The translations under genes were made by a program, and so were the position numbers. Source: Akkermansia muciniphila ATCC BAA-835 (lineage in GTDB: Bacteria > Verrucomicrobiota > Verrucomicrobiia > Verrucomicrobiales > Akkermansiaceae). From it: a stretch of 32,000 nt of DNA. The notes under the pieces are model-generated. The model worked only from the letters and a program-made list of their open reading frames with translations. It had not been told where the DNA came from and did no database searches. Of this stretch, positions 8,572 to 31,434 are shown one piece after another. Position 1 is the first letter of the stretch, and every line of letters begins with the position of its first letter. The DNA lies in assembly GCF_000020225.1 (NCBI RefSeq), contig NC_010655.1:1800001-1832000 (forward strand), written 5' to 3'.

Positions 8572-8656
8572 GAAGGTTCTGGAACAGGGGGGGGAGGAGG
8601 CGTTGCCGCACTCGCTTCTGGACGGTTCCGCCGGCTGGGGCTAGGATGGCGGAGCT

Positions 8657-9907: not shown

Positions 9908-10065
9908 CGCCTTCCCTTCCATTTGCGGCAGGGGAAGGCTGTCGGTCCTCATGCTGCGGGGAAAAGGGGTGCATGTAGGGTTTCCCCCCCGCGGATAATT
10001 CCGGGATGCAGCCGGCCAGGGAAGAGGAAGCAGGTTTGGGAAACGTCAGGAGCAGGAACCGGCTG

Positions 10066-11703: not shown

Positions 11704-11833
11704 TGCAGTTGCCCTTAATCTAACGATAAAACCGCTGTCTTGGCAAGAGGCAAAATAAAGGAATCCTTTCTGAAAGGAGGCCTGGCCGGGGGAACGCGTA
11801 TGAAGGACACCGGCTGGTTTTTAAGATGGACTC

Positions 11834-12520
11834 CTATTTTTCTTTTTCCTTTTCCTGGGATTGAAGAAATTGCAGTTCTTTCTTCAAAGCGCTTCCTACG
11901 CGGTGCTTTGCCAGATAGACCTGGGCAATCGTGACGCCGAGCTGCCGGCGGACCTTGGCCGCGTCCCACTCCCGCAGGACATAATAGTCAAAAATCTGGA
12001 ACTGCTTGGGCGACACTTTTGCTTTGACGCGTTCCAGAGCCGCCTGAAGAAGGTTATTCTGCCATTCCCGTTCCCATACCTGGTCAAAATTATTCTTCCC
12101 TTCATCCGGGATTTTGTCGATGGGGTGTTCCAGGGTATCCGTGGCATCAGGGTTCATCAGCATGGCCGTGTCCTTTTTCCGCTTGCGGAACTGGTCATTG
12201 ATGCGCCAGCGGGTCATGTTCCATAGCCAGAGTTTGAAGGAACCCTGTTCCGGTTTGTAAATATTTTTCCTGCTCTGCTTGGCGATGGAAAGAATGGTTT
12301 CCTGTACCACGTCCCAGGCCTCGTCTTCCCTTAATCCGGCCTTGAGGGCGACGGAATAAATAAGCCGCCAATATGTCCGGTAAAATTCATCCCAGGTACG
12401 CTGGTCTTCCCAGTTTTCCAAACGCGCGATCAGGCTTTTCCTGGTATGTTCCGCGTATTGGGAAAGTGTCTGCTCGTCAGGCTGGGACTCGTTATGGGGT
12501 TGCAATGGGGGCACATTCAT
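11834..12520 (-). CDS. ECF-type RNA polymerase sigma-70 family factor
   Basis: 228-aa ORF. Region 2 reads FYRTYWRLIYSVALKAGLREDEAWDVVQETILSI and region 4 has the HTH VRRQLGVTIAQVYLAKHRV. A Lys/Glu tail follows. Confidence 0.85.
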   Translation of the reverse strand: MNVPPLQPHNESQPDEQTLSQYAEHTRKSLIARLENWEDQRTWDEFYRTYWRLIYSVALKAGLREDEAWDVVQETILSIAKQSRKNIYKPEQGSFKLWLWNMTRWRINDQFRKRKKDTAMLMNPDATDTLEHPIDKIPDEGKNNFDQVWEREWQNNLLQAALERVKAKVSPKQFQIFDYYVLREWDAAKVRRQLGVTIAQVYLAKHRVGSALKKELQFLQSQEKEKEK

Positions 12521-12643
12521 GGTTTATCATGAACTACGGATGGAAGTGAAGCGAAAGCCGAGTAATAGGCCGGAAAATTCTGCACGGTCCAGCCTGTTCA
12601 TTCACTACGTCCGTCGTGGAAAAAATCTTTCAGGGAAACGGAC

Positions 12644-13654
12644 ATGATCAGGAAAACGTCAAAACGCAGGGGAACCTCCGTCATTGCGGCCCTGATTGCG
12701 TTGTGCGCGGTGGTGGGGTACGGTTTGACGGAGTGGGCGCCGCTGGATAATGAACCGCAGGCGGTTCCCTCCCGCCAGAGGGAAGAGCGGCAGACGGTTC
12801 GGGAGAAGGTGGAAATCCCCGACAAGGGGGAGCCCGTTCGTTTGCTGACCATGAACGCCGGAAACTACTTTGTGCCGGAAGACCCGAGGAGAAGCAATTT
12901 TCAGGTAAAATACAAGCCTGTGGAAGCCCGTGAAGCCGTGGCGGAGCTGGTTCGCCAATCGGGGGCGGAAATCGTGGGGCTGTGTGAAATGGGCGGGGAG
13001 GCTGCCGTTCGTGACTTGCAAATGCGGCTGAAAAGAAAAGGAGTTCATTTGCCGTACAAAGTTCTTGTCATGCGGGACGGGGAGGACCGTGGTTTGGCCC
13101 TTCTTTCCAAATACCGCATCGCGGATGACCGTTCCGTAACGGACATGCCTGTATCCGGAGAGGCGAAACGGAAAAAGACGATGCTGCGGGGCATTCTGGA
13201 CGCCACGGTCAGCATGCCGGACGGACGGCTGTTCCGCCTGGTGGGCATTCATCTGAAATCACGCCTCAGCCGTGACGGTTCCGCAGAAGACACACGGAGA
13301 AGGGAAGCCTACGCCCTGCGGGACTACCTGAATGAAGCTCTTGCCTCTCAGGACGGCATGCCTCTGCTTCTGTACGGAGATTTTAATGACGGCCCGTCAG
13401 ACAGCGCCGTGCAGGTCATCCAGGGGCCGGCCAAAACGGAATACCGCCTGAACCGTTTGAAGCCCAGGGATTCTCGTGGTGAGACCTGGACCATTTACTA
13501 CGAAGACGGTGACACCTACCATTCCTTCGACCATCTTTTCCTGAACAATACTCTGAAAAAGCGCCTCGGCCGCAAGCCTCCCATGGGCATCCTTGACTCT
13601 CCCCCCTCGCTCCAGGCCAGCGACCACCGCGGCGTGTGGGTGGAATTAAGGTAG
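12644..13654 (+). CDS. endonuclease/exonuclease/phosphatase (EEP) family protein, exported or anchored
   Basis: 336-aa ORF with an N-terminal signal/anchor (SVIAALIALCAVVGYGL). EEP motifs are LLTMNAGNYF, GLCEMG, GIHLKSR, YGDFND and SDHRGVWVEL. Confidence 0.8.
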   Translation: MIRKTSKRRGTSVIAALIALCAVVGYGLTEWAPLDNEPQAVPSRQREERQTVREKVEIPDKGEPVRLLTMNAGNYFVPEDPRRSNFQVKYKPVEAREAVAELVRQSGAEIVGLCEMGGEAAVRDLQMRLKRKGVHLPYKVLVMRDGEDRGLALLSKYRIADDRSVTDMPVSGEAKRKKTMLRGILDATVSMPDGRLFRLVGIHLKSRLSRDGSAEDTRRREAYALRDYLNEALASQDGMPLLLYGDFNDGPSDSAVQVIQGPAKTEYRLNRLKPRDSRGETWTIYYEDGDTYHSFDHLFLNNTLKKRLGRKPPMGILDSPPSLQASDHRGVWVELR

Positions 13655-14198
13655 ATAAAAATGATTTACTATAAATGGAATATGTAATAAATATCTGTTA
13701 GATTTTTTTATTTGATCGAATTGATATTTTTGTGATGTAAAAATGCACTTGTAAAAACCTAAAAAATAATATTGCTAACGAGAATAAAATTTGTAGAGCT
13801 ATCCCTCAGCATTACCTTCTCGCATAACTGATAACTATTTATTATGGATTTTCTAATTAATTCTAATGATATATCTCATTCATACAATTAGAGGATTTAA
13901 ATTTAAAATATAAAAACTGAATTGTTTAATTTAATTTTGTTTCGGTCACCTTCTCTGCCTTTCGCTGGATATATTGCCAGATGTTGGTATTTGAATGATG
14001 TTGAAATTTTACAGTAAGACTATTCTGCTTAATCCCGTAAAAAAATATGGACTGCTTTCACTTAATGTTTCTTATTGGGGTTCTTTTGTTGAATTGGCAA
14101 ATCATTTTTACCATAGTTATATATGAAATATCCAGATACACTTATAGATTACAAATATTTGTTGTCTGATCTTAAATATTGCTTCTAAAAATTAGGGT

Positions 14199-14233
14199 TT
14201 TGTAAAAATGTAAAAGGTTGCATTTTAACTTTG
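14199..14233 (+). promoter_or_regulatory. candidate Bacteroidetes-style promoter (-33 TTTG / -7 TAnnTTTG) for the four-gene operon
   Basis: TTTG at 14199-14202 and TAACTTTG at 14226-14233. The predicted TSS falls just downstream, which favours ATG 14271 as the real start. This is a pattern match in AT-rich DNA only. Confidence 0.3.
14223..14233 (+). repeat. left copy of the 11-nt direct repeat TTTTAACTTTG bracketing the operon
   Basis: Identical to 23051-23061. Looser similarity extends upstream (GTAAAAGGTTGCA.. versus GTAAAAAAGAACC..). Confidence 0.6.
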
Positions 14234-14270
14234 AATGGAACTCAATCTCTTAATTAGGGATAATAGTAGA

Positions 14271-17200
14271 ATGGAGCTTATAGATAACATAAACAAGACC
14301 CTGAAAGGGGATTTGACCAGGGAGTTGCACGACGGCAGCAAAGTTGCCATTGCCGCTTCGTGCTTTTCCATTTACGCCTTTGAGGAGCTGAAAGCGCAGC
14401 TTAAAGACATTGAGGAGTTGCGCTTTATCTTTACCTCCCCGACTTTCGTCACCGAGAAAGCCAACAAGCAAAAACGGGAGTTCTATATTCCACGGTTGAA
14501 CAGGGAGGGCAATCTCTATGGCTCTGAGTTTGAGATAAAATTGCGCAACGAGCTTTCGCAAAAAGCCATTGCCAAAGAGTGCGCCGAATGGATCAGGCGG
14601 AAAGCCTGCTTCAAGTCCAACTATACGGGAGAGAACATGATGGGCTTCGCCACCGTTGACGACAAGGCGTATATGCCCGTCACCGGATTTACCACGGTGG
14701 AATTGGGATGCGAGCGGGGCGACAACGCCTACACGGTGATAAACAAGTTCGAGGCTCCTTTCTCGCAGCAATACCTTTTCCTTTTCGATCAGCTTTGGAA
14801 TGACAGCGCGAAGATGCAGGTAGTCACGGACAAGATACTCGACAACATCAGCAATGTCTATAAGGAGAACGCCCCCGACTTCATCTATTTCGTCACCTTG
14901 TACAATATCTTCCGTGAATTCCTTGACAACCTCTCCGAAGACGACCTGCCCAACGAGGCAACCGGATTCAAGGAAAGCCAGATATGGAACAAACTATATA
15001 ATTTCCAGAAGGATGCCTGCCTTGCCATCATCAACAAGTTGGAAAAGTACAACGGCTGCATCCTTGCCGACAGCGTGGGATTGGGCAAGACGTTTACCGC
15101 CCTCTCGGTCATCAAGTATTACGAGAACCGCAACAAGTCAGTGCTTGTGCTTTGCCCGAAGAAACTTAACGACAACTGGATAACCTACAAGAGCAACTAT
15201 CTGAACAACCCCATCGCCCGTGACCGCCTGCGCTATGACGTGTTCTTCCATTCTGACCTGTCACGCCGGGGTGGAAAGACCAACGGGCAGGACTTGGACC
15301 ATATCAACTGGGGCAACTACGACCTTGTGGTCATAGACGAGAGCCATAATTTCCGAAACGGCGGCAAGGTGACAACGGATGGGAATGACGACAACCCGCG
15401 CGAGAACCGCTACCTGCAACTGCTGAACAAGGTTATCCGGGCGGGGGTCAAGACAAAAGTGCTGATGCTCTCGGCCACGCCCGTGAACAACCGTTTCAAC
15501 GATTTGAAGAATCAGATACAGCTTGCCTACGAAGGTGAGTGCGGCAGGATGGATGCCCTGTTGAACACGTCTTCCGGCATTGACGACATTTTCCGTCAGG
15601 CTCAGAAGGAATACAACATATGGACGAAGCTCCCGCCGAAGGAGCGCACTACGAAAGAACTGCTCAGCCGGTTGAGCTTCGACTTCTTTGAAGTACTCGA
15701 CAGCGTTACTATTGCCCGCAGCCGCAAGCATATAGAGCAGTATTACAATACGGCGGACATCGGCAAGTTCCCCATGCGGCTGGCTCCGCTGTCACGCCGT
15801 CCCAACCTGACTGACCTCGACACGGCTATCAACTATAACGGGATTTACGAAATTGTCAGCCGCCTCAACCTTGCCATTTATACCCCTTCCGATTTCATTC
15901 TGCCAAGCCGGAGGAAAAAATACATGGACGAGGATAACGACTTCCACGGTCGCGGCAGAGCCGGACGCGAGAAGGGAATACGCCGCCTGATGAGCATCAA
16001 CCTGCTTAAACGTCTGGAAAGCTCGGTCAATTCTTTCCGCCTCACCCTTGAAAGAATCAGGAAGTTGATAGCGTCAACCATCGGACAGCTTGATGAGTTG
16101 AATCAGGGCGACAGCTTTTCCATTGAATGGGAGGATATTTCGCGGAATCTCGATGCCGATGATCGAGAGGCGGATATGTTCATCGGTGGCAAGAAGACAA
16201 GAATTGCCCTGCAGGATCTTGACCACATCACATGGCGCGGCTACCTCAAAAAGGATTTGGAGAACCTTGATCTTCTGCTGCTCATGATTGGCTCCATCAC
16301 TCCGGAACACGACCGCAAGCTGCAACAGTTGATTGCCGACTTGCGCGGCAAGTTTGCCTGCCCCATCAATGCAGGCAACAGGAAGGTGATTATCTTCACG
16401 GCGTTCTCCGATACCGCCGAATACCTGTACGGTTGTCTGGCTGCTCCCATTCTGGAAAAGTATGGGCTGCATACGGCACTCGTCACCGGAGACGTGGAAG
16501 CACGCAGTACATTGCGCCTTCCACAACGCGAGAAGCTCGACTTCAATAAGGTGCTTACGCTCTTCTCTCCAATTTCAAAGGAGAAGTCTGCCATTTATCC
16601 GCACATCCGGGAGGAGATAGACGTGCTTATCGCTACCGACTGCATCAGCGAGGGACAGAACTTGCAGGATTGTGACTGTCTCATCAATTACGACATCCAT
16701 TGGAATCCCGTGCGCATCATTCAGCGTTTCGGGCGTATCGACCGCATTGGCTCGCGCAACGAGGTGATTCAGCTTGTGAACTACTGGCCGGACGTGACCC
16801 TTGACGAATACATCGACCTGAAAGGACGGGTGGAAGCCCGCATGAAGGTGTCGGTGCTGACAAGTACGGGCGATGACAATCCCATATCGCCTGAAGAGAA
16901 AGGCGACCTTGAATACCGGCGCGAGCAACTGAAACGCCTGCAGAGCGAGGTGGTGGACATGGAGGAGATGAACACGGGCGTTTCCATCATGGATTTGGGG
17001 CTGAACGAGTTCCGTCTTGACCTGCTTGCCTGCCTGAAAGACGCTCCCGGCCTGGAGCATATGCCTTTCGGTCTTCATGCCGTGGTACCCGCAAGTGACG
17101 GTGCGCCTGCCGGAGCGGTGTTCGTATTGAAAAACCGTAACAACGGCGTGAATATTGACCACAGGAACCGCCTGCATCCTTTCTATATGGTCTATATCTC

Positions 17201-17507
17201 GGAGAGCAGGGAAGTGGTGGTCAATCATCTTTCACCCAAGGAGATGCTCGATCGCCTGCGCTTCCTGTGCAAAGGCAAGACCGCACCGGACATGGAGCTA
17301 TGCCGGGAGTTCAACAAGGCCACTTCCGACGGGAAGAACATGCGGCGGTATTCCGGACTGTTGGGCGATGCTATCTCCTCCATCATCCATGTGAAGGAAG
17401 AGAGCGACATCGACAGTTTCCTGAGCGGCGTGCAAGGTTTGCTCTTCACGGAAGAGATACGCGGGCTGGACGACTTTGAATTAATCTGTTTTCTCGTCAT
17501 CAAGTGA
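14271..17507 (+). CDS. SNF2-family DEAD/H helicase with a ~230-aa N-terminal accessory domain
   Basis: Motif I is DSVGLGKT (GLGKT at nt 15078-15092) and motif II is VIDESHNFRN (DESH at 15336-15347). Helicase-C motifs are ATDCISEGQNLQDC and QRFGRIDRIGS. The track ORF starts at 14235. I prefer Met13 (MELIDNINK..) at 14271. Confidence 0.9.
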   Translation: MELIDNINKTLKGDLTRELHDGSKVAIAASCFSIYAFEELKAQLKDIEELRFIFTSPTFVTEKANKQKREFYIPRLNREGNLYGSEFEIKLRNELSQKAIAKECAEWIRRKACFKSNYTGENMMGFATVDDKAYMPVTGFTTVELGCERGDNAYTVINKFEAPFSQQYLFLFDQLWNDSAKMQVVTDKILDNISNVYKENAPDFIYFVTLYNIFREFLDNLSEDDLPNEATGFKESQIWNKLYNFQKDACLAIINKLEKYNGCILADSVGLGKTFTALSVIKYYENRNKSVLVLCPKKLNDNWITYKSNYLNNPIARDRLRYDVFFHSDLSRRGGKTNGQDLDHINWGNYDLVVIDESHNFRNGGKVTTDGNDDNPRENRYLQLLNKVIRAGVKTKVLMLSATPVNNRFNDLKNQIQLAYEGECGRMDALLNTSSGIDDIFRQAQKEYNIWTKLPPKERTTKELLSRLSFDFFEVLDSVTIARSRKHIEQYYNTADIGKFPMRLAPLSRRPNLTDLDTAINYNGIYEIVSRLNLAIYTPSDFILPSRRKKYMDEDNDFHGRGRAGREKGIRRLMSINLLKRLESSVNSFRLTLERIRKLIASTIGQLDELNQGDSFSIEWEDISRNLDADDREADMFIGGKKTRIALQDLDHITWRGYLKKDLENLDLLLLMIGSITPEHDRKLQQLIADLRGKFACPINAGNRKVIIFTAFSDTAEYLYGCLAAPILEKYGLHTALVTGDVEARSTLRLPQREKLDFNKVLTLFSPISKEKSAIYPHIREEIDVLIATDCISEGQNLQDCDCLINYDIHWNPVRIIQRFGRIDRIGSRNEVIQLVNYWPDVTLDEYIDLKGRVEARMKVSVLTSTGDDNPISPEEKGDLEYRREQLKRLQSEVVDMEEMNTGVSIMDLGLNEFRLDLLACLKDAPGLEHMPFGLHAVVPASDGAPAGAVFVLKNRNNGVNIDHRNRLHPFYMVYISESREVVVNHLSPKEMLDRLRFLCKGKTAPDMELCREFNKATSDGKNMRRYSGLLGDAISSIIHVKEESDIDSFLSGVQGLLFTEEIRGLDDFELICFLVIK

Positions 17508-17509
17508 GT

Positions 17510-18112
17510 ATGTACGGACTGCCCATCACTACGGAACGCAAGAAGCAATTGCCGAAAAAGGCCGTATATGCGAAGTTCGACCTGAAGCCCTCGCAGCGCG
17601 ACGGCTTCGATGCCGATGTGAGCCGCATGGATATTGTGGCGGTCTTGTCTCCGGCAACATTGCCGGCCATTGCGGCGGGAGAAAACATCAAGGACATCTA
17701 TATGCTTGCCGTGCAGCTGAAGCGGAAGGATTACGATAGCAAGAGCATCGCCCTGTTATCCCGGCTCATTCCGCAGAATATCCTGTTTGCCTTGCAGTTT
17801 GAGGCGGACACGCAATTCGCCGTTTATCATGCCGACAGGCTTATCCGTTCCGCATGGATGCCGACAGGGGAAGCGAAGATTGCGTTTTCGGGATTGAATC
17901 TGGATGCCGTTTGGGAGAATATCGTGAAGAGCATCGGCGGCATTGAGATGGAACAGGGCAAGACTCTTACACAGCAGATACAAACCAATGAACAACGAGC
18001 GAAAACCCTTGCTCAGATTGCTGCTTTGGTGCGGAAGATGGCAAGTGAGAAACAGCCTCGGCGCAAACGGGAGTATTTTGAAATAATCAAAAAACTAAAA
18101 TCAAACCTATAA
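17510..18112 (+). CDS. DUF4391-like protein of unknown function
   Basis: 200 aa starting at ATG 17510, 2 nt after the SNF2 stop (the track uses GTG 17504). The sequence (MYGLPITTERKKQLPKKAVYAKF .. VSRMDIVAVLSPATL .. LLSRLIPQNILFALQFE) matches my memory of the DUF4391 family, which typically sits between a helicase and a methylase. I could not verify this. Confidence 0.65.
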   Translation: MYGLPITTERKKQLPKKAVYAKFDLKPSQRDGFDADVSRMDIVAVLSPATLPAIAAGENIKDIYMLAVQLKRKDYDSKSIALLSRLIPQNILFALQFEADTQFAVYHADRLIRSAWMPTGEAKIAFSGLNLDAVWENIVKSIGGIEMEQGKTLTQQIQTNEQRAKTLAQIAALVRKMASEKQPRRKREYFEIIKKLKSNL

Positions 18113-20011
18113 ATGGACAAATTGAAAATGCAGAGCCACGATGTGACAAGCTCCAACATAAATAAGATAGCGCGATTGTTCCCGAACTGCGTTACGGAAC
18201 GGTTAGGTAAGAACGGCAAGCCGGAACTGGCTATCGACTTTGAAAAATTGGAAGCGGAGTTATCCAACGATATTCTTGCAGAAGGGGAGGAACGCTATCA
18301 GTTCACTTGGCCGGACAAGCGGGCGGCAAACCGTTTGGCGAACACTCCCACGACAATGACGCTCCGCCCGTGTCGGGAGGAATCGGTGGATTTTGACAAC
18401 ACGCAGAATCTTTATATCGAGGGTGACAACCTTGATGTGCTGAAGGTGTTGCGTGAGACATACCTCGGCAAAGTGAAGATGATTTATATTGACCCGCCTT
18501 ACAACACGGGCAACGACTTTGTGTACAATGACGAGTTTGCACAAGGCAAGTCGGAGTTTGAGCAAAACAGCGGCTTGTTCGATGAAGAGGGGAATCAGAC
18601 GATTGACCCGATGTTGCGGAATACGGAAAGCAACGGGCGTTTTCATACGGATTGGCTGAATATGATATATCCGAGGCTGAAGGTGGCCCGCGACTTGCTC
18701 TCTGAAGACGGCGTGATTTTCATTTCCATTGATAATAATGAAATCGAAAACCTCCGAAAAATATGCGACGAGATCTTCAGCGAATCTAATTGCATATGTC
18801 AATTTGTTTGGAAAAACAAGTATGGAGCAGGAGGGGGCACAAATTCTGTGGCTTATGTTCACGAATATATATTAGCATATTCAAAAACTCCAATAGTGAG
18901 TATAAGTTCAGACTTATCAGAAGACTTAATATCAAGCTATAATAAAACTGATGAAAAGTATAGTACCAGAGGAGGGTACGTTACGCAACCTTTGGCAAGC
19001 ACAAGTAAGGGTGCAAGAGTAAATTTAATGTACGATATTTTACATGAAGGCAATATAATCAAGCCTCCAAAGGGAGGTAGATGGATTTGGAGTAAAGATA
19101 AATTTGACGCTGCTTATGCAAATAATGAAATCGTGATTTCAAAAAATTCAAGTGGATATAGTGTACGTTTCAAACAATATCTTAGAGATAAAAACGGAAA
19201 AATGCGTAAAGGTACACCGTTATCTCTAATTGCATCTGTCTTCAATCAAGAGGGTACAAAAGAATTTGCAGAGCTTATGGGGGATAAACGTATCTTTGAT
19301 TTTCCAAAGCCTTCTGATTTAATAAAATTTTTATTAAGTCTAAATATAAATGGCGGAACTACAGATTTTACTATTATAGACTTCTTTAGCGGTAGTTCAT
19401 CGACCGCCCATGCTGTGATGAAACTCAATGCCGAGGACGGCGGCAATCGCAAATTCATCATGGTGCAGCTTCCCGAATTGACCGATGAGAAGAGCGAAGC
19501 CTATAAAGCCGGATATAAGAATATCTGTGAGATAGGCAAAGAACGCATCCGCCGTGCCGGAAAAAAAATCAAGGAAGAGAATGCCGACAAGGAAGGCATC
19601 GATAAGCTCGACACCGGTTTCCGCGTGCTGAAACTCGACAGCAGCAATATGGAAAATGTCTATTACACTCCGCAAGAGTTTGACGAGCAATCCTTGTTCA
19701 ATGAGAATGTGAAGCCCGACCGCAGCAGCGAAGATTTGCTGTTCCAAGTGATGCTCGACCTCGGCATTGAACTCTCGGCAAAGATTGAGACGCGGCAAAT
19801 GGCAGGAAAGAACGTGCATTTTGTGGACGGGAACTATCTGATAGCCTGTTTCGACAAGGACGTGAATGAATCCGCCATTACGGAAATCGCCAGACTGAAG
19901 CCGGTATATTTCGTGATGCGCGACGCTTCGGCAGCCAACGACAACGTGATAGACAATTTCGAGCAGATATTCCGCCACTACTCGCCCGACACGAATTGCA
20001 GAATACTGTAG
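18113..20011 (+). CDS. mod: beta-class N6-adenine DNA methyltransferase, Type III Mod-like
   Basis: Motif IV IYIDPPYNTGNDF (DPPY at nt 18491-18502) precedes motif I DFFSGSSSTAHAV (about nt 19379-19417), with a ~200-aa variable region between them. That is the Type III Mod order. The ATG directly abuts the upstream TAA. Confidence 0.9.
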   Translation: MDKLKMQSHDVTSSNINKIARLFPNCVTERLGKNGKPELAIDFEKLEAELSNDILAEGEERYQFTWPDKRAANRLANTPTTMTLRPCREESVDFDNTQNLYIEGDNLDVLKVLRETYLGKVKMIYIDPPYNTGNDFVYNDEFAQGKSEFEQNSGLFDEEGNQTIDPMLRNTESNGRFHTDWLNMIYPRLKVARDLLSEDGVIFISIDNNEIENLRKICDEIFSESNCICQFVWKNKYGAGGGTNSVAYVHEYILAYSKTPIVSISSDLSEDLISSYNKTDEKYSTRGGYVTQPLASTSKGARVNLMYDILHEGNIIKPPKGGRWIWSKDKFDAAYANNEIVISKNSSGYSVRFKQYLRDKNGKMRKGTPLSLIASVFNQEGTKEFAELMGDKRIFDFPKPSDLIKFLLSLNINGGTTDFTIIDFFSGSSSTAHAVMKLNAEDGGNRKFIMVQLPELTDEKSEAYKAGYKNICEIGKERIRRAGKKIKEENADKEGIDKLDTGFRVLKLDSSNMENVYYTPQEFDEQSLFNENVKPDRSSEDLLFQVMLDLGIELSAKIETRQMAGKNVHFVDGNYLIACFDKDVNESAITEIARLKPVYFVMRDASAANDNVIDNFEQIFRHYSPDTNCRIL

Positions 20012-20013
20012 TC

Positions 20014-23000
20014 ATGAAATTCAAGTTTAAGATACAACAATATCAGACGGAGGCGGTGGAGAATACCGTGGCTGTCTTCACGGGGCAGCCCTCGTACGCC
20101 ATAGAGGGATATCGCCTCGACCGCGGACGGCAGGCACAACGACAGTTGGATTTCGATGATGAAACAGGATACAGGAACCACTGCGTGGAACTGGATGGGA
20201 AAGCCCTGTTGAAAAACATCAATACCATTCAGAATCTGTATGACATCACGCCGTCTTCTTCCCTTTCAAAGGGTATCGGTGCGGTGAATCTCGACATAGA
20301 GATGGAGACCGGAACGGGAAAGACATACGTCTATATCAAGACGATGTTTGAGCTGAATAAACAGTACGGCTGGAGCAAATTCATCGTGGTGGTGCCGAGC
20401 ATCGCCATCCGTGAGGGCGTGGCAAAGAGTTTCCGCATGTTGGAGGAGCACTTCATGGAACACTACGGCAAGAAAGCGCGGTGGTTCATTTACAACAGCG
20501 GCAACCTGCAACAACTCGACAGTTTTTCATCTGATTCCGGGTTGAGCGTGATGATTATCAACACGCAGGCTTTCGCCTCCTCGATGAAGGAGGGCGGCAG
20601 AAGCAAGGAGAGCAGGATTATTTACTCCGAGCGTGATGAGTTCGGCAGCCGCCGTCCCATAGACGTGATTGCCGCCAACCGTCCCATCATTATCATGGAC
20701 GAACCGCAGAAGATGGAGGGCGATGCCACGCAGGCGGGCATCAAACGCTTCAACCCACTGTTCGTGCTGAACTATTCGGCTACGCACACGACCAGGCACG
20801 ATACCATCTATGCGCTGGATGCTTTGGACGCTTACCGGCAGAAGCTGGTGAAGCGCATTCATGTGAAAGGTTTTGAAGTGAAGAACCTCCGGGGAACGAG
20901 CGGGTATCTCTATCTCGACAACATCGTGTTGTCGCCCAAACGTCCGCCGGAAGCGCGCATTGAGCTGGAGGTGAAGAATGCTTCAGGCAGCATCGTCAGG
21001 AAGATAAAAACATTCGGCGTGGGCGACAACCTGCGCGAAGAGTCCGGGCTGGCCGAGTACGACAACTTTGTGGTGTCGGAAATCAACATGAACGGCTATG
21101 TGACCTTTCTCAACGGCGTGACCATACGCAGGGGCGAGGTGATAGGCGACCCGGATGAGCTGGACATGCAGCGGGTGCAAATCCGGGAGACCATCATGTC
21201 GCACTTGGAGAAAGAACGCCAGCTTTTCAAGCGGGGCATCAAGTGCCTGTCCCTCTTTTTCATCGACGAGGTGGCGAAGTACAAGAGCTACGATGAGAAC
21301 GGGGAGGAAGTGAAAGGCGTGTTCCAGAAAATGTTCGAGGAGGAATATGCGAGGTTGGTGAATGAGGAGTTCTACATCTGGGATGAGGACTACAACGAAT
21401 ACCTCCGCCGTTTCCTGCCCCAGGACGTGCATCGGGGTTATTTCTCCATAGACAAAAAGACTAACCGGGTGATTGACGGCAAGGTGGAAAAGAAGACGGG
21501 ACTGTCAGACGACATTTCCGCTTACGACCTTATCCTGAAGAACAAGGAACGCCTGCTGAGCTTTGAGGAGCCGACACGCTTCATCTTCTCGCACTCGGCA
21601 CTGCGTGAGGGGTGGGACAATCCCAATGTATTTCAGATTTGCACGCTGCGCCATTCCAACTCCTCCACCGCCAAACGTCAGGAGGTAGGGCGCGGTTTGC
21701 GTATCTGCGTGGACAGGAACGGCGTGCGCATGGACAAGGAACTGCTGGGGGAAGACGTGCATGAGGTGAACAAACTGACCGTGATAGCCAACGAGAGCTA
21801 TGCGGATTTTACCACAGCCCTGCAAAAGGAGACACGGGAAGTGTTGCGTGAGCGCGCAGCCAAGGCAACGGTCGCCTATTTTCAAGACAGGCAGATTAAG
21901 ATTGGGGAGGAAATACATACCATTACCGAAACGGAAGCCAGCCGCATCATCATCTATCTGGAAGACAACGGCTATATTGACGAGGACAAGCACATCACGC
22001 CGGATTACCGTGAGGCCGTGGCAAACGGCACGGTGGCTCCATTGCCGCCCAGGCTGCAACCGATAGCTGAGGGGGTAGTCCGTCTGATAAACTCCATCTT
22101 CGACCCGAAGGCACTCGACGACATGGTGGTGGAGGAGAAGACAACCACGCCGGACAACAAACTTAACGAAAACTTCCAAAAAGCCGAATTCCAAGCTTTG
22201 TGGAACGAGATAAACCACCAGTATGTTTATACGGTAAGCTACGACAGCAACGAGCTGATAGAAAAAGCCATCCTGCACATCAATTCCGAACTGGAGGTAA
22301 AGCGGCTCCGCTATGTGATGGTGGAGGGAACGCAGGATGAGGAGCAGGTAACTGACTTCGGAGACACCCGTTCCCAATCCAGGCAACTGACCGATGTCTG
22401 CACTTCCACCGTCCGCTACGACCTTGTGGGCGACATAGCCAAAGGCGCCAATCTCACCCGCCGCACAGTGGTGAAGATACTGCAAGGCATCCAGACGAGC
22501 AAGCTTTACCTGTTCAAGAACAACCCCGAGGAGTTTATCCGCAAGGCTGTAAGCATCATCAAGGAGCAGAAGGCCACGATGATTGTGGAGGCCATCCGCT
22601 ACAACATGACGGAAGGCAAATACGACAGCAGCATCTTCACCGTGAAGAGCAGAATGGATTTTGACCGGGCATACGAGGCGAAGAAGCATATCACCGATTA
22701 TGTGTTCAGCGACAGCAAGGGGGAACGCCAATTCGCCCATGACCTTGACGAGGCCCATGAAGTGGTGGTCTATGCCAAACTGCCCCGTACTTTCCAAATA
22801 CCCACTCCGGTAGGCAACTATGCCCCCGACTGGGCTATCGCTATGACGAAAGACGGAGTGAAACACATCTTTTTCATTGCCGAGACCAAAGGCTCCATGT
22901 CATCAATGGATTTGAGTGCCATCGAAAAGGCAAAAATCGCATGTGCGGAGAAGTTGTTCAACTCTATCTCAACGGCAAATGTGAAGTATCACAAAGTGGC

Positions 23001-23040
23001 TACCTATCAGGATTTGATTGATGAGATGAACGCGGGGTAA
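20014..23040 (+). CDS. res: Type III restriction enzyme Res-like subunit (SF2 helicase plus C-terminal PD-(D/E)xK nuclease)
   Basis: Walker A is IEMETGTGKT, motif II is IIIMDEPQKM, and a motif VI-like QEVGRGLRI is present. The C-terminal YAPDWAI ... FIAETKG carries D at nt 22828-22830 and E-x-K at 22882-22890. ATG 20014 lies 2 nt after the mod stop, whereas the track start 19996 overlaps mod. Confidence 0.9.
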   Translation: MKFKFKIQQYQTEAVENTVAVFTGQPSYAIEGYRLDRGRQAQRQLDFDDETGYRNHCVELDGKALLKNINTIQNLYDITPSSSLSKGIGAVNLDIEMETGTGKTYVYIKTMFELNKQYGWSKFIVVVPSIAIREGVAKSFRMLEEHFMEHYGKKARWFIYNSGNLQQLDSFSSDSGLSVMIINTQAFASSMKEGGRSKESRIIYSERDEFGSRRPIDVIAANRPIIIMDEPQKMEGDATQAGIKRFNPLFVLNYSATHTTRHDTIYALDALDAYRQKLVKRIHVKGFEVKNLRGTSGYLYLDNIVLSPKRPPEARIELEVKNASGSIVRKIKTFGVGDNLREESGLAEYDNFVVSEINMNGYVTFLNGVTIRRGEVIGDPDELDMQRVQIRETIMSHLEKERQLFKRGIKCLSLFFIDEVAKYKSYDENGEEVKGVFQKMFEEEYARLVNEEFYIWDEDYNEYLRRFLPQDVHRGYFSIDKKTNRVIDGKVEKKTGLSDDISAYDLILKNKERLLSFEEPTRFIFSHSALREGWDNPNVFQICTLRHSNSSTAKRQEVGRGLRICVDRNGVRMDKELLGEDVHEVNKLTVIANESYADFTTALQKETREVLRERAAKATVAYFQDRQIKIGEEIHTITETEASRIIIYLEDNGYIDEDKHITPDYREAVANGTVAPLPPRLQPIAEGVVRLINSIFDPKALDDMVVEEKTTTPDNKLNENFQKAEFQALWNEINHQYVYTVSYDSNELIEKAILHINSELEVKRLRYVMVEGTQDEEQVTDFGDTRSQSRQLTDVCTSTVRYDLVGDIAKGANLTRRTVVKILQGIQTSKLYLFKNNPEEFIRKAVSIIKEQKATMIVEAIRYNMTEGKYDSSIFTVKSRMDFDRAYEAKKHITDYVFSDSKGERQFAHDLDEAHEVVVYAKLPRTFQIPTPVGNYAPDWAIAMTKDGVKHIFFIAETKGSMSSMDLSAIEKAKIACAEKLFNSISTANVKYHKVATYQDLIDEMNAG

Positions 23041-23050
23041 AAAAGAACCT

Positions 23051-23061
23051 TTTTAACTTTG
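23051..23061 (+). repeat. right copy of the 11-nt direct repeat TTTTAACTTTG
   Basis: Identical to 14223-14233. It begins 10 nt after the res stop codon. Confidence 0.6.
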
Positions 23062-23341
23062 TTTTTGGGACTCTTTTTTATGAGCCGGATTTTATCCCAG
23101 GCCGGTTTGACCCTATCTTGCTTGAGGTGTACCCATTGGGTCAGCCGGATGTTTTCTCTTACGGACGAATGGCCTGGGAGAGGATTACCGGATGGCAATG
23201 AGTTTTATTTGGCCAGGAACATATCAGGCATTCCAGTTCCTCAAAAAATGATTGCCGTGTCCGTCTGAAACGGGTAGCATGCCAAAAATCGTTGTTCAAT
23301 CCTGCATCATCTGTATGAGATATTTTTCCAAGCATTCCGGA

Positions 23342-24025
23342 ATGGCTCCGCGCTGTTCCTCGCCGGGGAGCAAGGGGTTTACCCTGGTGGAATTGATTGT
23401 CGTTATCACCATTATGGTTGCCATGATGGCCTTGGCCGCCAGCATGTTGAGGGGCGGGGGCAGGGGGCAGGGGCTTCAGGCCGCCGTTGAAATGGTGGAC
23501 GGCATGGTGCAGGAGGCGCGGCTGGATGCCATGGGCAAAGGAACGTGGAGCCGCCTGATTATTGTGAGCACTCCCGATGACGAAGCCCGCAATATGCGCA
23601 CTTTGGGCGTGATGTCCAAAAATACCCGCACCGGGAAATGGCATCTGGTGAACCGTTTGCAGACTCTCCCCGCCGGTTTTTACGTCAGTCCGGCCTACAG
23701 CACCCTTCTGGAAGGCTCGAAGAAAGCCAGAGGCGAGAAATCCACGGCCCGCGGTTTTGCCAGCCGTGACGGGCAGGATACCGTCAACCTTCCCGGCAAC
23801 AGAATGACGGATATTTACTTCATTGAATTTGACGAGGAAGGCCGCATGTCCCAGCCGAACGCCCCCACCCGCCTGGTGGTGGTTGCCGGTTCCGCCGGAA
23901 ACGGCAAGGAGGAGAGGCCGACCCCGATGGTGGACGGCAAACCGGGCCTGGCAGGCGGCATTGTGATTTATCCCAAAGGCAATATCAGCCGTCTGAGGAC
24001 GACGGAGCAGGTGATTCCCAATTAG
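23342..24025 (+). CDS. prepilin-type N-terminal cleavage/methylation domain protein, GspH/FimT-like pseudopilin
   Basis: Leader ..SPGSKG followed by FTLVELIVVITIMVAMMALAASML, then a GspH-like AVEMVDGMVQEARLDAM. The start is uncertain: the track gives 23252, and I chose ATG 23342 because it gives a short leader. Confidence 0.75.
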   Translation: MAPRCSSPGSKGFTLVELIVVITIMVAMMALAASMLRGGGRGQGLQAAVEMVDGMVQEARLDAMGKGTWSRLIIVSTPDDEARNMRTLGVMSKNTRTGKWHLVNRLQTLPAGFYVSPAYSTLLEGSKKARGEKSTARGFASRDGQDTVNLPGNRMTDIYFIEFDEEGRMSQPNAPTRLVVVAGSAGNGKEERPTPMVDGKPGLAGGIVIYPKGNISRLRTTEQVIPN

Positions 24026-24031
24026 TTTCTG

Positions 24032-24040
24032 TGATATAAT
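24032..24040 (+). promoter_or_regulatory. extended -10 box TGATATAAT upstream of the second pseudopilin gene
   Basis: A perfect TGnTATAAT at 24032-24040, 18 nt before ATG 24058 and just after the stop of the first pseudopilin gene. No clear -35 element. Confidence 0.35.
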
Positions 24041-24057
24041 ACCGGATTTCCCATTTT

Positions 24058-24858
24058 ATGTTGACCAAGTGTATGAAACAGTCTCGTGCCAAGGGGTTCA
24101 CCCTGACGGAAGTGGTGCTTGCGATCGGCGTGGTGGCCGTGCTGATTGTAGTGTTCATGGCCATGTTTATTCCTGCCAGAAGGACGGTTCAGTCCGCCCT
24201 GACTATTCGTGAAGCGGACCGCATCGTCCACGCCCTGACGGCGGAACTTGGAGAACTCCGCAATTCCGAGCGTGCCGCGTCCAACGCCAGAAAGTCTTCC
24301 TCCTCCAGATATGTTTCCGCTTTTGACAAGGCGTTTTACTGGATGCAGTTCACGTCCAGGCCCGCTACGACCATTCTTGTTTACAATTACAGGGCGGATT
24401 TGACCAAGGGGGCCCGCAAAGACGGAACTCCCCAGCCCTGGCTGGAGGATGGCGGAAGCATTCCCGGCAAAAATACTGCGGTGGTGACAGGGGTCTGCCT
24501 GGCGAACAACAAAGAGCGTTGGGATGATTTCAAGGCCCTTGTCGGTCCCGTCTTCGCCGTGCGCATGACCCAGCTGGTAGTGGAGCGCATGGATTCAAGC
24601 TCCTACGGGTACAAGCTGGCTCCCAAGTACGGGACGATTTATAATCCTTACAACCGCGGCAAGGTGATTAAGGAACCTTCCCTGTATGTTTATACGCCGG
24701 AGAAAGGCGGCGGCCTGAATTTGCCGTGGGGGGCGGAAGTCCTGTACCAGGCGGAGTTCTTCCAGCTGTTGAATACGGACCCCGAGCGTTTACAACATCT
24801 GACGTGGGAAAATTTAAAGACTCCCGTGTTTACGCGCAATCTCGCTTTCCGCCGTTAG
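24058..24858 (+). CDS. prepilin-type N-terminal cleavage/methylation domain protein (large pseudopilin)
   Basis: MKQSRAKG then FTLTEVVLAIGVVAVLIVVFMAMF. 266 aa, or 261 aa from ATG 24073. Confidence 0.8.
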   Translation: MLTKCMKQSRAKGFTLTEVVLAIGVVAVLIVVFMAMFIPARRTVQSALTIREADRIVHALTAELGELRNSERAASNARKSSSSRYVSAFDKAFYWMQFTSRPATTILVYNYRADLTKGARKDGTPQPWLEDGGSIPGKNTAVVTGVCLANNKERWDDFKALVGPVFAVRMTQLVVERMDSSSYGYKLAPKYGTIYNPYNRGKVIKEPSLYVYTPEKGGGLNLPWGAEVLYQAEFFQLLNTDPERLQHLTWENLKTPVFTRNLAFRR

Positions 24859-24888
24859 CGGGCATTATCTGAAGACCTCTGAAAAAAC

Positions 24889-25959
24889 ATGAAGACATTT
24901 GCCAAAATCAAATCCGGCGCGTTCACCCTGATTGAGCTCCTGGCAGCCATGACCATCACTACCGTGCTGGTTCTGGTAATTGTGGCCCTGACTTCCCGCG
25001 GGGTGGATATCTGGAGATGGGTGCTGCAGGATGTGCGGACCACGACGCTTGCCCGCACGGCCATGGATACCATGACCAAGGATTTTGAAAGCATGCAGTT
25101 CCGTTCCGGGAATCCCTTTGAGTGGATGCTGGTGCAGCGGGACAGCGATTTGGTTTCCCGTGCGGGAAAGACCAAGGTTTCCAGGAAAAAGGGCCGCTCC
25201 TCCTCCCTGAATGAAGCCCGCGTGAACCTGATGACCATGGGGCCGGAAGGCGCCAAAATCACGAATGCCTCCCAATTGGTTTTCTTTACCACGGCTACGG
25301 ACCGCAATCCGGCCAAGTCCAGTATGGACATGAGGAATGACCGCATCATCGGCGATGTGAATTGCGTGGGGTACAAGCTTCTTTACCGTGACCAGATTCT
25401 GGACCAGGACGCTACGGCGGAGTCTGACGGTTTTCCCGTTTATTCCCTGTACCGCAACTTAATCAGCGCGGAGGATACCGTGCGTAACCTTCTGGGCCAG
25501 CAGGATCTATGGTCCGCTTATGCACGGTACCAGCAGGATGAAACCGTCCCTTCCAACTTCCTGGTGGAGAATATTGTGGAAATGACGCTGATTTTTGAAG
25601 TGGATTACCAGAAGAAGATCGGCAATTCCGGCAGCAACAAATCGGACAAGGATGCCTCGCAAAGAGCATCCGTGCTGGTTCCGGTCATGACTACGGGCGC
25701 CAACCGTCTCGGCTCCTGCACCCAGATGGATGTGTATGGCAATCGCCTGGACATCATAGGCAGCAGCGTGAATATTGATGATTTGAAATCCGGCCGCGTT
25801 ACTGCCGTGACAATTTCCATGACGGTGGTGACGGATGAAGGCATGGCTCTTGTGGACCAGATCCGGCAGAAAAAGCGTCCCGCTCCTTCTCCTGAAGAAT
25901 TTTTCGAACGTTATACCCGGTCTTTCACCCAGAGGATTGCATTGCCGATGAACCGTTAG
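24889..25959 (+). CDS. prepilin-type N-terminal cleavage/methylation domain protein (GspJ/PilW-like, large)
   Basis: MKTFAKIKSGA then FTLIELLAAMTITTVLVLVIVAL. 356 aa. The residue at -1 is Ala rather than the usual Gly. Confidence 0.8.
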   Translation: MKTFAKIKSGAFTLIELLAAMTITTVLVLVIVALTSRGVDIWRWVLQDVRTTTLARTAMDTMTKDFESMQFRSGNPFEWMLVQRDSDLVSRAGKTKVSRKKGRSSSLNEARVNLMTMGPEGAKITNASQLVFFTTATDRNPAKSSMDMRNDRIIGDVNCVGYKLLYRDQILDQDATAESDGFPVYSLYRNLISAEDTVRNLLGQQDLWSAYARYQQDETVPSNFLVENIVEMTLIFEVDYQKKIGNSGSNKSDKDASQRASVLVPVMTTGANRLGSCTQMDVYGNRLDIIGSSVNIDDLKSGRVTAVTISMTVVTDEGMALVDQIRQKKRPAPSPEEFFERYTRSFTQRIALPMNR

Positions 25960-26049
25960 GCCTGTATCCGGGAAACCGGGGAGGGCGGAACGTCCGCTGT
26001 TGCTTTTTGCCTGGAGCGTTCCTGCCATTAATTGTTCTGTAGTTGCCAT

Positions 26050-26790
26050 ATGTTGGGTTTCACAAATATCGTCGGCAATTTATCCCCTCTGCCGGAATTA
26101 GTGCTGTGGCGCGATCCTGTCGCCAGAAGCGGGGAGGAAGCCATGGCCGTGGACGAAGCTCTGCTGGAATGGGGCAGGAAGCCTGTGCTGAGGGCGTACC
26201 GCTGGGCGGAACCGACCGTGACTTACGGTTATTTTGATGAGGAGGCCACGGCGCGCGCCATTTTCCCGGGTGAGGAGCTTCATTTTGTCCGCCGCTGGAC
26301 AGGGGGGGGGATTGTAGACCATCGGCAGGATATTCCCTTTACGCTGGCCATGCACCGCAAGGGAGAAAAAGAGCGTCCTTCCAGCGCGGTTTTGTACCGT
26401 TGGATTCATGGGGCGCTGGCCCGCGTCCTGAGGGATTGCGACGTGGAGTGCGTGATGCTGGACGGGGATGCCCCGGACGGAGGGCGGGCCTGTTTTTCCA
26501 GCCCCGTAACGAGTGATCTTGTCCTTCCCGGCGGGGAAAAACTGGCTGGCGGCGGCCAGAGAAGAGTCCGCGGAGGCGTTCTTCACCAGGGGAGCATCCA
26601 GAATTGTCTTCTCCCTTCCGGATGGGATGAATTGCTGGCCGCCCGCCTGGCGGAAAAGCATTCCCTGTGCGTGGACGCGGAATTGTTCCCCGGCATGAAT
26701 GCCCGCGTGGAGGAACTGCTGGCTTCCAAATACCGTACGGAAGCATGGCGTTCCGGCGTACGGCATGGGCGTCCGTCTCAGCCACGGTAA
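26050..26790 (+). CDS. biotin/lipoate A/B protein ligase family protein (LplA/LipB-like)
   Basis: RRWTGGGIVDH and EKLAGGGQRRVRGGVLHQGSI resemble the RRxSGGGAVxHD and KxxGsAQrr motifs of lipoate-protein ligases. The track start is 26032, and I prefer ATG 26050. Confidence 0.7.
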   Translation: MLGFTNIVGNLSPLPELVLWRDPVARSGEEAMAVDEALLEWGRKPVLRAYRWAEPTVTYGYFDEEATARAIFPGEELHFVRRWTGGGIVDHRQDIPFTLAMHRKGEKERPSSAVLYRWIHGALARVLRDCDVECVMLDGDAPDGGRACFSSPVTSDLVLPGGEKLAGGGQRRVRGGVLHQGSIQNCLLPSGWDELLAARLAEKHSLCVDAELFPGMNARVEELLASKYRTEAWRSGVRHGRPSQPR

Positions 26791-26813
26791 TTCCCCCCCC
26801 TTTTTTCTTTCCG

Positions 26814-27803: not shown

Positions 27804-27850
27804 GCGCTGTTTTTCCCGTGGTGCTGGTCTTTCTGCTGGAAGGGGCATTT

Positions 27851-27873
27851 CCTGTTCCGGACACAGGTTTTTT
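27851..27873 (+). terminator. weak rho-independent terminator after gpr
   Basis: CCTGT (27851-27855) pairs with ACAGG (27863-27867), followed by T6 (27868-27873). The stem is only 5 bp. Confidence 0.35.
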
Positions 27874-27874
27874 C

Positions 27875-27903
27875 TTGGAGTAAAGTAGAGCTGGTGTTAT
27901 GTT
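27875..27903 (+). promoter_or_regulatory. candidate sigma-70-like promoter for the pyrophosphatase gene
   Basis: TTGGAG (27875-27880), a 17-nt spacer, then TATGTT (27898-27903), about 30 nt upstream of ATG 27934. Pattern match only. Confidence 0.25.
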
Positions 27904-27933
27904 TTTACTACTTTAATTTAAAGTGTACTGACA

Positions 27934-31428: not shown

Positions 31429-31434
31429 AAAACA

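Follow-up and report, generated by a model that had tools for sequence, protein, structure and literature searches.

A conserved four-gene cassette of an SNF2-family ATPase, a DUF4391 protein and a Type III restriction-modification pair in Akkermansia muciniphila

In this study, we analyzed a stretch of 32,000 nucleotides from Akkermansia muciniphila ATCC BAA-835 (NCBI RefSeq assembly GCF_000020225.1, contig NC_010655.1, positions 1,800,001 to 1,832,000 of the forward strand; hereafter the window, in whose coordinates positions are given unless a locus is named). The element in question is an operon of four genes encoding an SNF2-family ATPase, a small protein of the DUF4391 family and the modification (Mod) and restriction (Res) subunits of a Type III restriction-modification (R-M) system. 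The same four genes, in the same order, were found in other bacterial genomes and plasmids, and we consider below what the first two may contribute to the last two.

The operon and its four proteins

A preliminary description of the window had read the operon as a helicase-augmented Type III R-M module with almost no intergenic space, and this layout was confirmed throughout. The four open reading frames (ORFs) all lie on the plus strand where they had been placed (Table 1), and a base-by-base reading reproduced the three junctions, namely TGA 17505-17507 followed by ATG 17510, TAA 18110-18112 followed by ATG 18113, and TAG 20009-20011 followed by ATG 20014. The motifs quoted for the SNF2 protein, Mod and Res are all present in the translations, and the Pfam search returned the domains that had been expected: SNF2 and Helicase_C, DUF4391, N6_N4_Mtase and ResIII.

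As judged from homology and motifs, Mod and Res are a genuine Type III R-M pair with intact catalytic motifs. Mod carries DPPY at residue 127 ahead of DFFSGSS at 423 (FFSGS at 424), contains the Pfam domain N6_N4_Mtase (PF01555) and aligns end to end with the PADLOC model MTase_III (E = 8e-220); its PDB matches include EcoP15I Mod (2e-63) and the Helicobacter-type Mod 6K0W (4e-68). Res, which contains the Pfam domains ResIII and RE_endonuc, has GTGKT at residue 100, DEPQ at 229, SATH at 255, PD at 938-939 and ETK at 957-959, aligns end to end with the PADLOC model REase_III (E = 1e-290) and matches EcoP15I Res in the PDB (3e-68). In eight distant orthologues of Res, the Walker A motif EMETGTGKT, motif II (DEPQ), motif III (SATH) and the nuclease motif PDWA...ETKG (D939/E957/K959) are invariant. 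The features that mark Type III membership were thus found in both subunits, with DPPY before motif I and a central target-recognition domain (TRD) in Mod, and a Res with SF2 and PD-(D/E)xK parts encoded directly after mod. The score of Res falls below the cut-off of the NCBIfam model PRK15483 (374 versus 564 bits), which places it in a subfamily separate from the canonical enzymes.

The closest relative of the operon (locus L001) is nearly identical to it, with Res 100% and the SNF2 protein 95% identical, and the Mod proteins of the two loci (L001 Mod at 1432-3327) are about 99% identical over amino acids 1-200 and 430-632. The TRDs between these segments (205-425) are unrelated. Such a comparison implies that the TRD is exchanged as a cassette, which would switch the specificity of the enzyme.

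The first protein of the operon is, by the same kinds of comparison, a true SNF2-family ATPase. It contains the Pfam domains SNF2-rel_dom and Helicase_C, its best PDB matches are SMARCA5, RapA and Snf2, and it carries GLGKT at residue 282, DESH at 368, SATP at 413 and QRFGRIDRIG at 830. In an alignment of nine diverse orthologues, motifs I, II, III and VI are invariant, and since the ATPase motifs are preserved in this way across phyla, the motor is under selection. Translation probably starts at ATG 14271, giving a protein of 1078 amino acids, because nearly all orthologue alignments start within a few residues of M13. Conserved domains lie on both sides of the ATPase core. The AlphaFold (AF2) model of the N-terminal domain has a predicted local-distance difference test score (pLDDT) of 43.8, which is too low for a fold assignment, and a profile of the C-terminal domain found no relative in the PDB.

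The N-terminal domain is strongly conserved, with invariant E91, E100, E115 and K123, and the top PADLOC match of the whole protein is PDLC01075 ('C3a139, HKD+Snf2', E = 5e-114). Both observations would fit an SNF2 protein that is itself a second nuclease effector, with a divergent PLD/HKD or other nuclease at its N terminus, in a dual-nuclease system resembling the HKD+Snf2 effectors. We regard this explanation as very improbable. The similarity to PDLC01075 is confined to the core and the C-terminal 200 residues, which on their own match positions 779-946 of the profile at E = 2.6e-9, while the N-terminal 230 amino acids on their own gave no match in PADLOC (PDLC01075 included), Pfam or PDB-profile searches. 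In addition, the H-x-K motif is absent from this domain in nine diverse orthologues. In view of the missing HxK and the missing profile match, a PLD/HKD nuclease in the N-terminal domain is rejected at the level of sequence only.

The second protein matches PF14335 (DUF4391) with 95.7 bits against a cut-off of 29.9 (E = 5e-27), over its residues 3-200 and profile positions 2-232. Its AF2 model, which has a pLDDT of 96.6 and a predicted template-modelling score (pTM) of 0.86, shows a core of mixed alpha/beta structure and, C-terminal to it, a long helical hairpin; a Foldseek search with this model found nothing significant in the PDB (best E = 0.08, template-modelling score < 0.3) or in BFVD. 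In an alignment of 76 sequences, not one column is invariant, and conserved acidic or basic residues that could be candidates for catalysis are lacking. Because a confident model has no structural match and no residue is invariant, we read DUF4391 as a protein that is probably a non-catalytic adaptor or partner rather than an enzyme. The scattered weak matches that Foldseek returned to Hjc and other PD-(D/E)xK proteins are a lead only. The family comprises 854 clusters at 50% identity (E up to 1e-3) and approximately 2,900-3,100 clusters at 90%, and no PADLOC or NCBIfam model covers it, in line with the preliminary description. Apparent fusions of DUF4391 to other domains (P0133, P0428 and L043) were considered as Rosetta-stone evidence and set aside, because they look like chimeras, deletions or remnants.

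Table 1. Features of the operon and its surroundings, and of selected related loci (L numbers), with the evidence for each
Feature	Position	Strand	Evidence and remarks
AT-rich non-coding leader	13655-14234		G+C content 0.358 over 13501-14500; short junk ORFs only
TAACTTTG	14226-14233	+	within the repeat core TTTTAACTTTG; fits TAnnTTTG
SNF2 gene	14235-17507	+	Pfam and PDB matches, invariant motifs; ORF of 1090 amino acids, more likely 1078
SNF2 conserved N-terminal domain, amino acids 13-252	14271-14990	+	orthologue alignment; no HxK (PLD)
SNF2 ATPase core	14991-16751	+	lobe 1, amino acids 253-424; lobe 2/Helicase_C, amino acids 712-839; long insert between them
SNF2 conserved C-terminal domain, amino acids 891-1090	16905-17504	+	common to PADLOC C3a139 'HKD+Snf2'
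DUF4391 gene	17510-18112	+	PF14335, AF2 model; 200 amino acids from ATG; mechanical ORF begins at GTG 17504
Mod, beta-class N6-adenine methyltransferase	18113-20011	+	MTase_III, EcoP15I Mod, DPPY/FFSGS; 632 amino acids
Mod TRD, about amino acids 205-425	18725-19387	+	comparison with L001; G+C content 0.394 over 18501-19500
Res, SF2 ATPase and C-terminal PD-(D/E)xK nuclease	20014-23040	+	REase_III, EcoP15I Res, Pfam; 1008 amino acids from ATG
Res nuclease domain, amino acids 891-996	22684-23001	+	D939, E957 and K959 invariant in 8 orthologues
Repeat copy 2, 22 nucleotides	23040-23061	+	77% identical to 14212-14233
DISARM/Type III hybrid array	NZ_AP022858.1 195907-209649 (L068 9908-14736 and L065 1089-9970)		
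Protein family of 250-286 amino acids, examples	L025 9192-9998; L031 9173-9997; L041 7742-8572; L043 1857-2606		
Helix-turn-helix genes before SNF2	L056 6264-7169; L058 9057-9221; L053 5520-5705; L054 5434-5634		

Distribution and modular structure of the cassette

The linkage of the four genes in other genomes, on which the preliminary description had staked its reading, is conserved: the order SNF2-DUF4391-Mod-Res recurs in approximately 60 loci from five phyla, with intact cassettes in Bacteroidota, Verrucomicrobiota, Bacillota, Pseudomonadota and Actinomycetota. When one genome per species was scanned with a 7-sequence alignment, 47 loci were obtained; this genome census is skewed to relatives of at least 46% identity, and records from plasmids and from E. 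coli widen the range. When the loci were compared with the four window proteins by tblastn and phmmer, this order on a single strand was found wherever the contig was long enough; beyond the window, 35 loci carry all four genes at full length and many more are cut by contig ends. The sole departure in the census is a Treponema contig, taken to be a remnant, in which a truncated DUF4391 is joined to part of a hexokinase.

The pairwise identity of DUF4391 drops to 18% across the loci, and in distant annotated members it is only 24-30%. A profile search with the DUF4391 family yielded largely members of the gut Bacteroidales clade once more and did little to widen the diversity. The window DUF4391 gave no tblastn match among plasmids, whose members were found with more distant family queries, and the operon itself had no megablast match in E. 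coli genomes or plasmids.

The cassette is carried by IncFIB plasmids of E. coli, by plasmids of Mycolicibacterium, Enterococcus faecium and Acinetobacter, and by plasmids of Listeria, Lactococcus, Aeromonas, Paraburkholderia and Bacillus cereus. In E. coli chromosomes, it adjoins a P4-like integrase and tRNA-Leu and is present in 54 of the 5426 complete genomes, those of CFT073 (NC_004431.1 5116943-5126603) and ABU 83972 included; a divergent E. coli variant resides on an integrative and conjugative element (ICE). The idea of a rare or hidden cassette was not upheld, given that RefSeq annotates these genes one by one in those same 54 genomes. Its names for the four products are 'helicase-related protein', 'DUF4391 domain-containing protein', 'site-specific DNA-methyltransferase' and 'type III restriction-modification system endonuclease'. 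A full cassette is also found on a 13-kb human faecal contig (MT836075.1, 'UNVERIFIED: Bacteriophage sp.'), whose SNF2 protein and Res are 63% and 45% identical to those of the window and which represents a phage-borne copy or else a bacterial fragment that was mis-binned.

Across the 36 complete cassettes, the pairwise-identity matrices of the SNF2 protein and DUF4391 correlate at r = 0.88 and those of Mod and Res at r = 0.86, against 0.47-0.58 across the two pairs. Because the correlations within pairs exceed those across pairs, the cassette appears to consist of two sub-modules, SNF2-DUF4391 and Mod-Res, that recombine and yet stay together, although part of the pattern might arise from linkage by itself. 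Four loci (L031 and L039-L041) illustrate such recombination, with SNF2 proteins 78-82% identical to that of the window and Res merely 42-43% identical. This evidence bears on the possibility that two independent defence systems are merely co-located, in which case SNF2-DUF4391 would be self-standing and the linkage would reflect the clustering of genes in defence islands. The recombination of the pairs speaks for it, as do the other defence genes that sit between the four genes. However, in the roughly 60 loci, SNF2-DUF4391 is always adjacent to Mod-Res, with gene order and strand preserved, the exceptions being cuts at contig ends and one remnant; moreover, neither protein has a recognisable effector domain, the SNF2 protein lacking an HKD motif and DUF4391 lacking conserved residues. 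We therefore give mere co-location only a small chance.

Mod-Res pairs of the same clade were also found without the other two genes, on Clostridium taeniosporum pCt3 (L060; Res 54% identical, and the locus checked on both sides) and on the Staphylococcus epidermidis plasmid NZ_CP121530.1 (L064; Res 43% identical). Because of these two plasmids, we consider that Mod-Res is probably autonomous and SNF2-DUF4391 accessory, and the two loci may be secondary losses. Natural disruptions of the cassette are also on record: in L. cremoris pJM1D, the SNF2 gene is split by IS712 and DUF4391-Mod-Res is intact, and in one Akkermansia metagenome-assembled genome the SNF2 gene is frameshifted. In E. coli 0H26, Mod is split by IS30, and in pMsp65 an IS1 element lies between Mod and Res. 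The disruptions and the Mod-Res-only loci together suggest a Mod-Res capable of standing alone, to which the SNF2-DUF4391 pair is an add-on.

In gut Bacteroidales, extra genes on the same strand are frequent at all three junctions, SNF2|DUF4391, DUF4391|Mod and Mod|Res (L004, L008-L011, L015, L016, L019-L032, L036-L042, L045 and L049-L051). The inserts that could be identified encode DUF4238, DUF4365, AbiGi and AbiJ-like proteins, HepT/MNT pairs and a 23S-rRNA-IVS protein, as well as Schlafen AlbA_2 with HATPase_c_4 and a helix-turn-helix (HTH) domain, SIR2_2, RhuM, PDC-S02 and PDC-S31. The cassette is a docking site for small defence and toxin-antitoxin genes, like Type I operons, and its junctions should be useful for finding new small defence genes. 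In 10 loci, a gene between SNF2 and DUF4391 encodes a member of a recurrent protein family of approximately 250-286 amino acids with no Pfam or PADLOC match, a possible optional fifth component of the cassette. In other phyla, an HTH gene often lies directly upstream of SNF2 and may encode a controller protein; its product is 301 amino acids long in the E. coli chromosomal form, and one such gene is annotated as MAD1-like. With a MAD1-like HTH gene before one E. coli variant, the MADS system was considered as an identity for the cassette and rejected, since none of the four proteins matches an NCBIfam MADS model.

Relation to named defence systems and the possible role of the SNF2-DUF4391 pair

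The reading of the operon as a helicase-augmented Type III R-M system is borne out by the homology of Mod and Res to EcoP15I and by the conserved SNF2-DUF4391 genes. In Type III systems, two subunits suffice, only one strand is methylated, and cleavage needs ATP and two inversely oriented unmodified sites. The cassette resembles the EcoP15I and EcoP1I systems in that mod is followed by res, Mod is of the beta class with a central TRD, and Res combines an SF2 part with a PD-(D/E)xK nuclease; unlike these systems, SNF2 and DUF4391 precede mod-res in nearly all of this clade. The Mod-Res-only relatives hint that two-subunit autonomy might extend to this clade.

Class 1 DISARM reportedly consists of the SNF2 protein DrmD together with DrmMI, DrmA, DrmB and DrmC. 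The cassette is like it in pairing an SNF2 ATPase with an N6-adenine methyltransferase in methylation-based defence, but it has no DrmA, DUF1998 or PLD protein, its methyltransferase and nuclease are a Type III Mod and Res, and DUF4391 is not a listed DISARM component. The earlier conclusion that the operon is neither DISARM nor BREX was upheld: DrmA, DrmB, DrmC, PglZ and BrxC are absent from the operon proteins and from 20 of the largest flanking ORFs, matches to BrxHI/II cover the helicase C-lobe only, and tblastn with B. cereus queries finds no DrmA or DrmB in the window or in the approximately 60 other loci. The top NCBIfam match of the SNF2 protein is NF038317 (DISARM_DrmD), which covers only amino acids 577-856; with 139.4 bits against a cut-off of 610, the protein is not a DrmD. 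The comparison with class 1 DISARM was nevertheless an apt one, as B. cereus plasmid pMRY14-0045_1 joins the two in a same-strand array of drmA-DUF1998 (drmB)-SNF2-DUF4391-Mod-Res that has no PLD gene. As far as gene content can tell, this hybrid array shows that the SNF2 protein and Mod of the cassette can take the places of DrmD and DrmMI.

A further comparison is with MANTIS (Gao_RL, a BREX-related type 2 system), which is composed of the DUF499 AAA+ protein MtsA, MtsB, the methyltransferase MtsC and the PLD-SF2 protein MtsD. In MANTIS, MtsA and MtsB are needed for methylation by MtsC, asymmetric sites are hemimethylated and restriction favours inverted sites, for which its authors likened it to Type III and ISP systems. 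The layout of the cassette is similar, with an ATPase, a small protein of unknown role, an N6-adenine methyltransferase and a helicase-nuclease, and MANTIS-like behaviour at its sites would follow from Type III homology only. Unlike MANTIS, the cassette has no DUF499 AAA+ protein and no DUF3780, its nuclease is of the PD-(D/E)xK and not the PLD kind, and its upstream ATPase is an SNF2 protein; the proteins of the two systems are homologous only in the SF2 core and the 'HKD+Snf2'-type C-terminal domain. Gao_RL was rejected as the identity of the cassette because Gao_RL is the DUF499-centred MANTIS.

The parallel with MANTIS and BREX suggests another explanation, namely that the ATPase and its small partner are an obligate loader or regulator that would load or activate the methyltransferase and hand the site to the helicase-nuclease; the four proteins would then make up a single machine, with Mod-Res by itself inactive or deregulated. 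MANTIS, in which MtsC depends on MtsA and MtsB, has the gene order of the cassette, whose four genes co-occur almost invariably and have closely spaced stop and start codons. We nevertheless consider an obligate role unlikely. Mod and Res keep everything that EcoP15I needs to act alone, Mod-Res-only loci and an SNF2 locus broken by an insertion sequence exist, DUF4391 and DUF3780 are unrelated, and the SNF2 protein does not belong to the AAA+ loaders of the ORC/Cdc6 type. In addition, inserted genes are tolerated at every junction of the operon, and tight coupling is therefore not required.

A separately encoded motor is familiar from CglI and NgoAVII, in which cleavage depends on the DEAD-Z1 H subunit and the R subunit is motorless. 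These enzymes provide a precedent for an SF2 motor subunit working with a restriction nuclease, but the cassette differs from them in having no Z1 domain, a Res with its own ATPase, and an SNF2 protein as the extra ATPase.

A parallel already in print is EcoR22I of E. coli ECOR22, for which a DrmD-like SNF2 protein beside a Type III system has been noted (Silas et al., bioRxiv 10.1101/2023.04.06.535777). There, mod and res alone restrict lambda-vir and give Ocr-triggered cell death, and transposon suppressors mapped to mod and res only (bioRxiv 10.1101/2023.04.06.535777). Three genes are mentioned for EcoR22I, DUF4391 not among them, and the Res residues named are D1024 and D1043. The suggestion of the preliminary description that the extra genes 'license' Res fits poorly with this sufficiency of mod-res and with the two same-clade Mod-Res-only plasmids.

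In the literature searched, whose reach left out most subscription papers, no description of the four-gene unit was found; no paper there treats DUF4391 in this system, one misapplies the name to another family and none contains PF14335. The statement that the operon fits no named system thus stands insofar as no curated model or paper covering all four genes was found, and falls short insofar as the association of a DrmD-like SNF2 protein with a Type III system is already in print. The components and the general logic are known, and the conserved four-gene architecture, in which DUF4391 accompanies specific SNF2 and Type III clades, is not in the models and papers within reach.

These comparisons lead to the following model. 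By homology to EcoP15I, Mod would read a short asymmetric site through its exchangeable TRD and methylate an adenine on one strand; in Res, ATP would switch the complex to long-range movement along DNA, whereupon the PD-(D/E)xK domain would cut unmodified invading DNA. SNF2 and DUF4391 would form a co-evolving pair of an active SNF2-type double-stranded DNA translocase and a small non-catalytic partner. Our best guess is that DUF4391 acts as an adaptor coupling the SNF2 motor to Mod-Res or to Mod-marked DNA, and that the motor strengthens or broadens restriction, for example by clearing bound proteins, roadblocks or anti-restriction factors off incoming DNA or by promoting encounters between Mod-Res complexes. 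An accessory role is favoured because Mod and Res keep the features of an autonomous enzyme, Mod-Res-only relatives exist and the pair has no recognisable effector domain. The statement as a whole, that SNF2-DUF4391 is an accessory and not an obligatory motor-adaptor pair that boosts or broadens restriction, has even chances in our estimate.

Several points weigh against this model. Near-universal linkage over such deep divergence exceeds what is expected of a dispensable helper, and the systems on the two Mod-Res-only plasmids may be in decay. Adjacency together with a recombination breakpoint at DUF4391|Mod, and not protein contact, could account for the correlation between SNF2 and DUF4391. 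The key activity could reside in the terminal domains of the SNF2 protein, neither of which has a PDB-profile match. Finally, the Res numbering of EcoR22I (D1024/D1043) misfits the cassette family, whose E. coli members have D952 and E971, so that the kinship of the two is not established.

The same motor could instead serve self-protection, if an SNF2 protein targeted by DUF4391 cleared stalled or colliding Mod-Res from host DNA (at forks, at transcription complexes or with a new TRD) and thereby limited autoimmunity. SNF2 relatives such as RapA, which is among the PDB matches, recycle stalled protein-DNA complexes; TRD swaps between otherwise identical operons create transient unmethylated host sites; and the cassette travels on plasmids, ICEs and islands that enter naive hosts. 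Canonical Type III systems, however, cope without a helper of this kind, because cleavage needs inverted unmodified sites, and we find it quite unlikely that self-protection is the role of the pair.

We also entertain, tentatively and with chances somewhat short of even, a bolder version in which SNF2-DUF4391 turns the Type III enzyme into a distinct dual-motor, four-component machine that is at the same time the minimal ancestral core of class 1 DISARM. New behaviours that would be possible for such a machine include ATP-dependent loading or licensing through a new adaptor fold, restriction at sites in the same orientation and resistance to DNA-mimic anti-restriction proteins. Combinations of R-M enzymes and helicases are a familiar theme, and the available hints favour an accessory over a transformative role.

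SNF2-type ATPases recur in methylation-based defences (DrmD of DISARM, BrxHII of BREX, Hma, and ZorD of Zorya), where their roles are mostly unknown, and the cassette is the simplest and most widespread setting that we found in which such a motor is joined to Type III R-M through a single small partner. It is widespread and occurs in tractable strains (E. coli CFT073 and ABU 83972, Listeria, Lactococcus and Enterococcus), which opens it to clean genetics and biochemistry. If the pair alters target range, resistance to anti-restriction or autoimmunity, two-gene Type III annotations will need revision and the models of defence finders should add DUF4391. If the dual-motor version is true, DrmD-like SNF2 proteins will gain a testable function in a simple system, E. 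coli CFT073.

Leader, repeats and flanking DNA

The AT-rich spacer of approximately 580 bp that had been described ahead of the operon is real and is presumed to be the promoter region of the operon; it contains no ORF for an HTH regulator. The G+C content was said to be lower in the module than in its flanks. This holds only in part: the dip comes mainly from the leader and from the Mod TRD (0.39 over 18501-19500), where it is explained by the swapped TRD, and SNF2 and Res have 0.52-0.54 versus 0.54-0.60 in the flanks.

The direct repeat that had been taken to bracket the operon as an insertion boundary was not substantiated. It consists of two imperfect copies of 22 nucleotides (14212-14233 and 23040-23061) that share the exact core TTTTAACTTTG. 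In 12 kb there are 23 comparable repeat families, this one included; because it is no better than chance, it is not evidence of an insertion boundary. The copy at 23040-23061 is probably a chance match or a promoter-like motif and not an attachment (att) site. Within the upstream copy, TAACTTTG (14226-14233) fits TAnnTTTG, which we take to be the Bacteroidetes-type -7 promoter motif, and would thus be part of a putative promoter.

Inside the operon, promoter-like sites are as frequent as in shuffled sequences. Terminator-like sites are somewhat commoner than expected (16 versus 10.6 +/- 3.1 in shuffles), and none of them is a convincing internal terminator. A scan of the operon found no simple-sequence or tandem repeats, and phase variation is unlikely because there are no simple-sequence repeats.

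On both sides of the operon (1-13654 and 23159-30162) lie housekeeping genes of the chromosome, from a host that is Gram-negative and possibly of PVC type. They encode LptF/G, OmpA, an M60-like peptidase, an MFS transporter, a PAS-SpoIIE protein, a sigma-70 factor, an Exo_endo_phos protein, an N_methyl pilin-like protein, LplA, an aldo-keto reductase and an H+-pyrophosphatase. The operon has no integrase, transposase or tRNA gene next to it in the window, and the N_methyl gene is also found downstream of its closest relative, L001. Low G+C content (0.44-0.48) recurs at positions 30000-32000 of the window, which contain an ORF of 344 amino acids (30394-31428) without a Pfam match, and this stretch may be another acquired segment.

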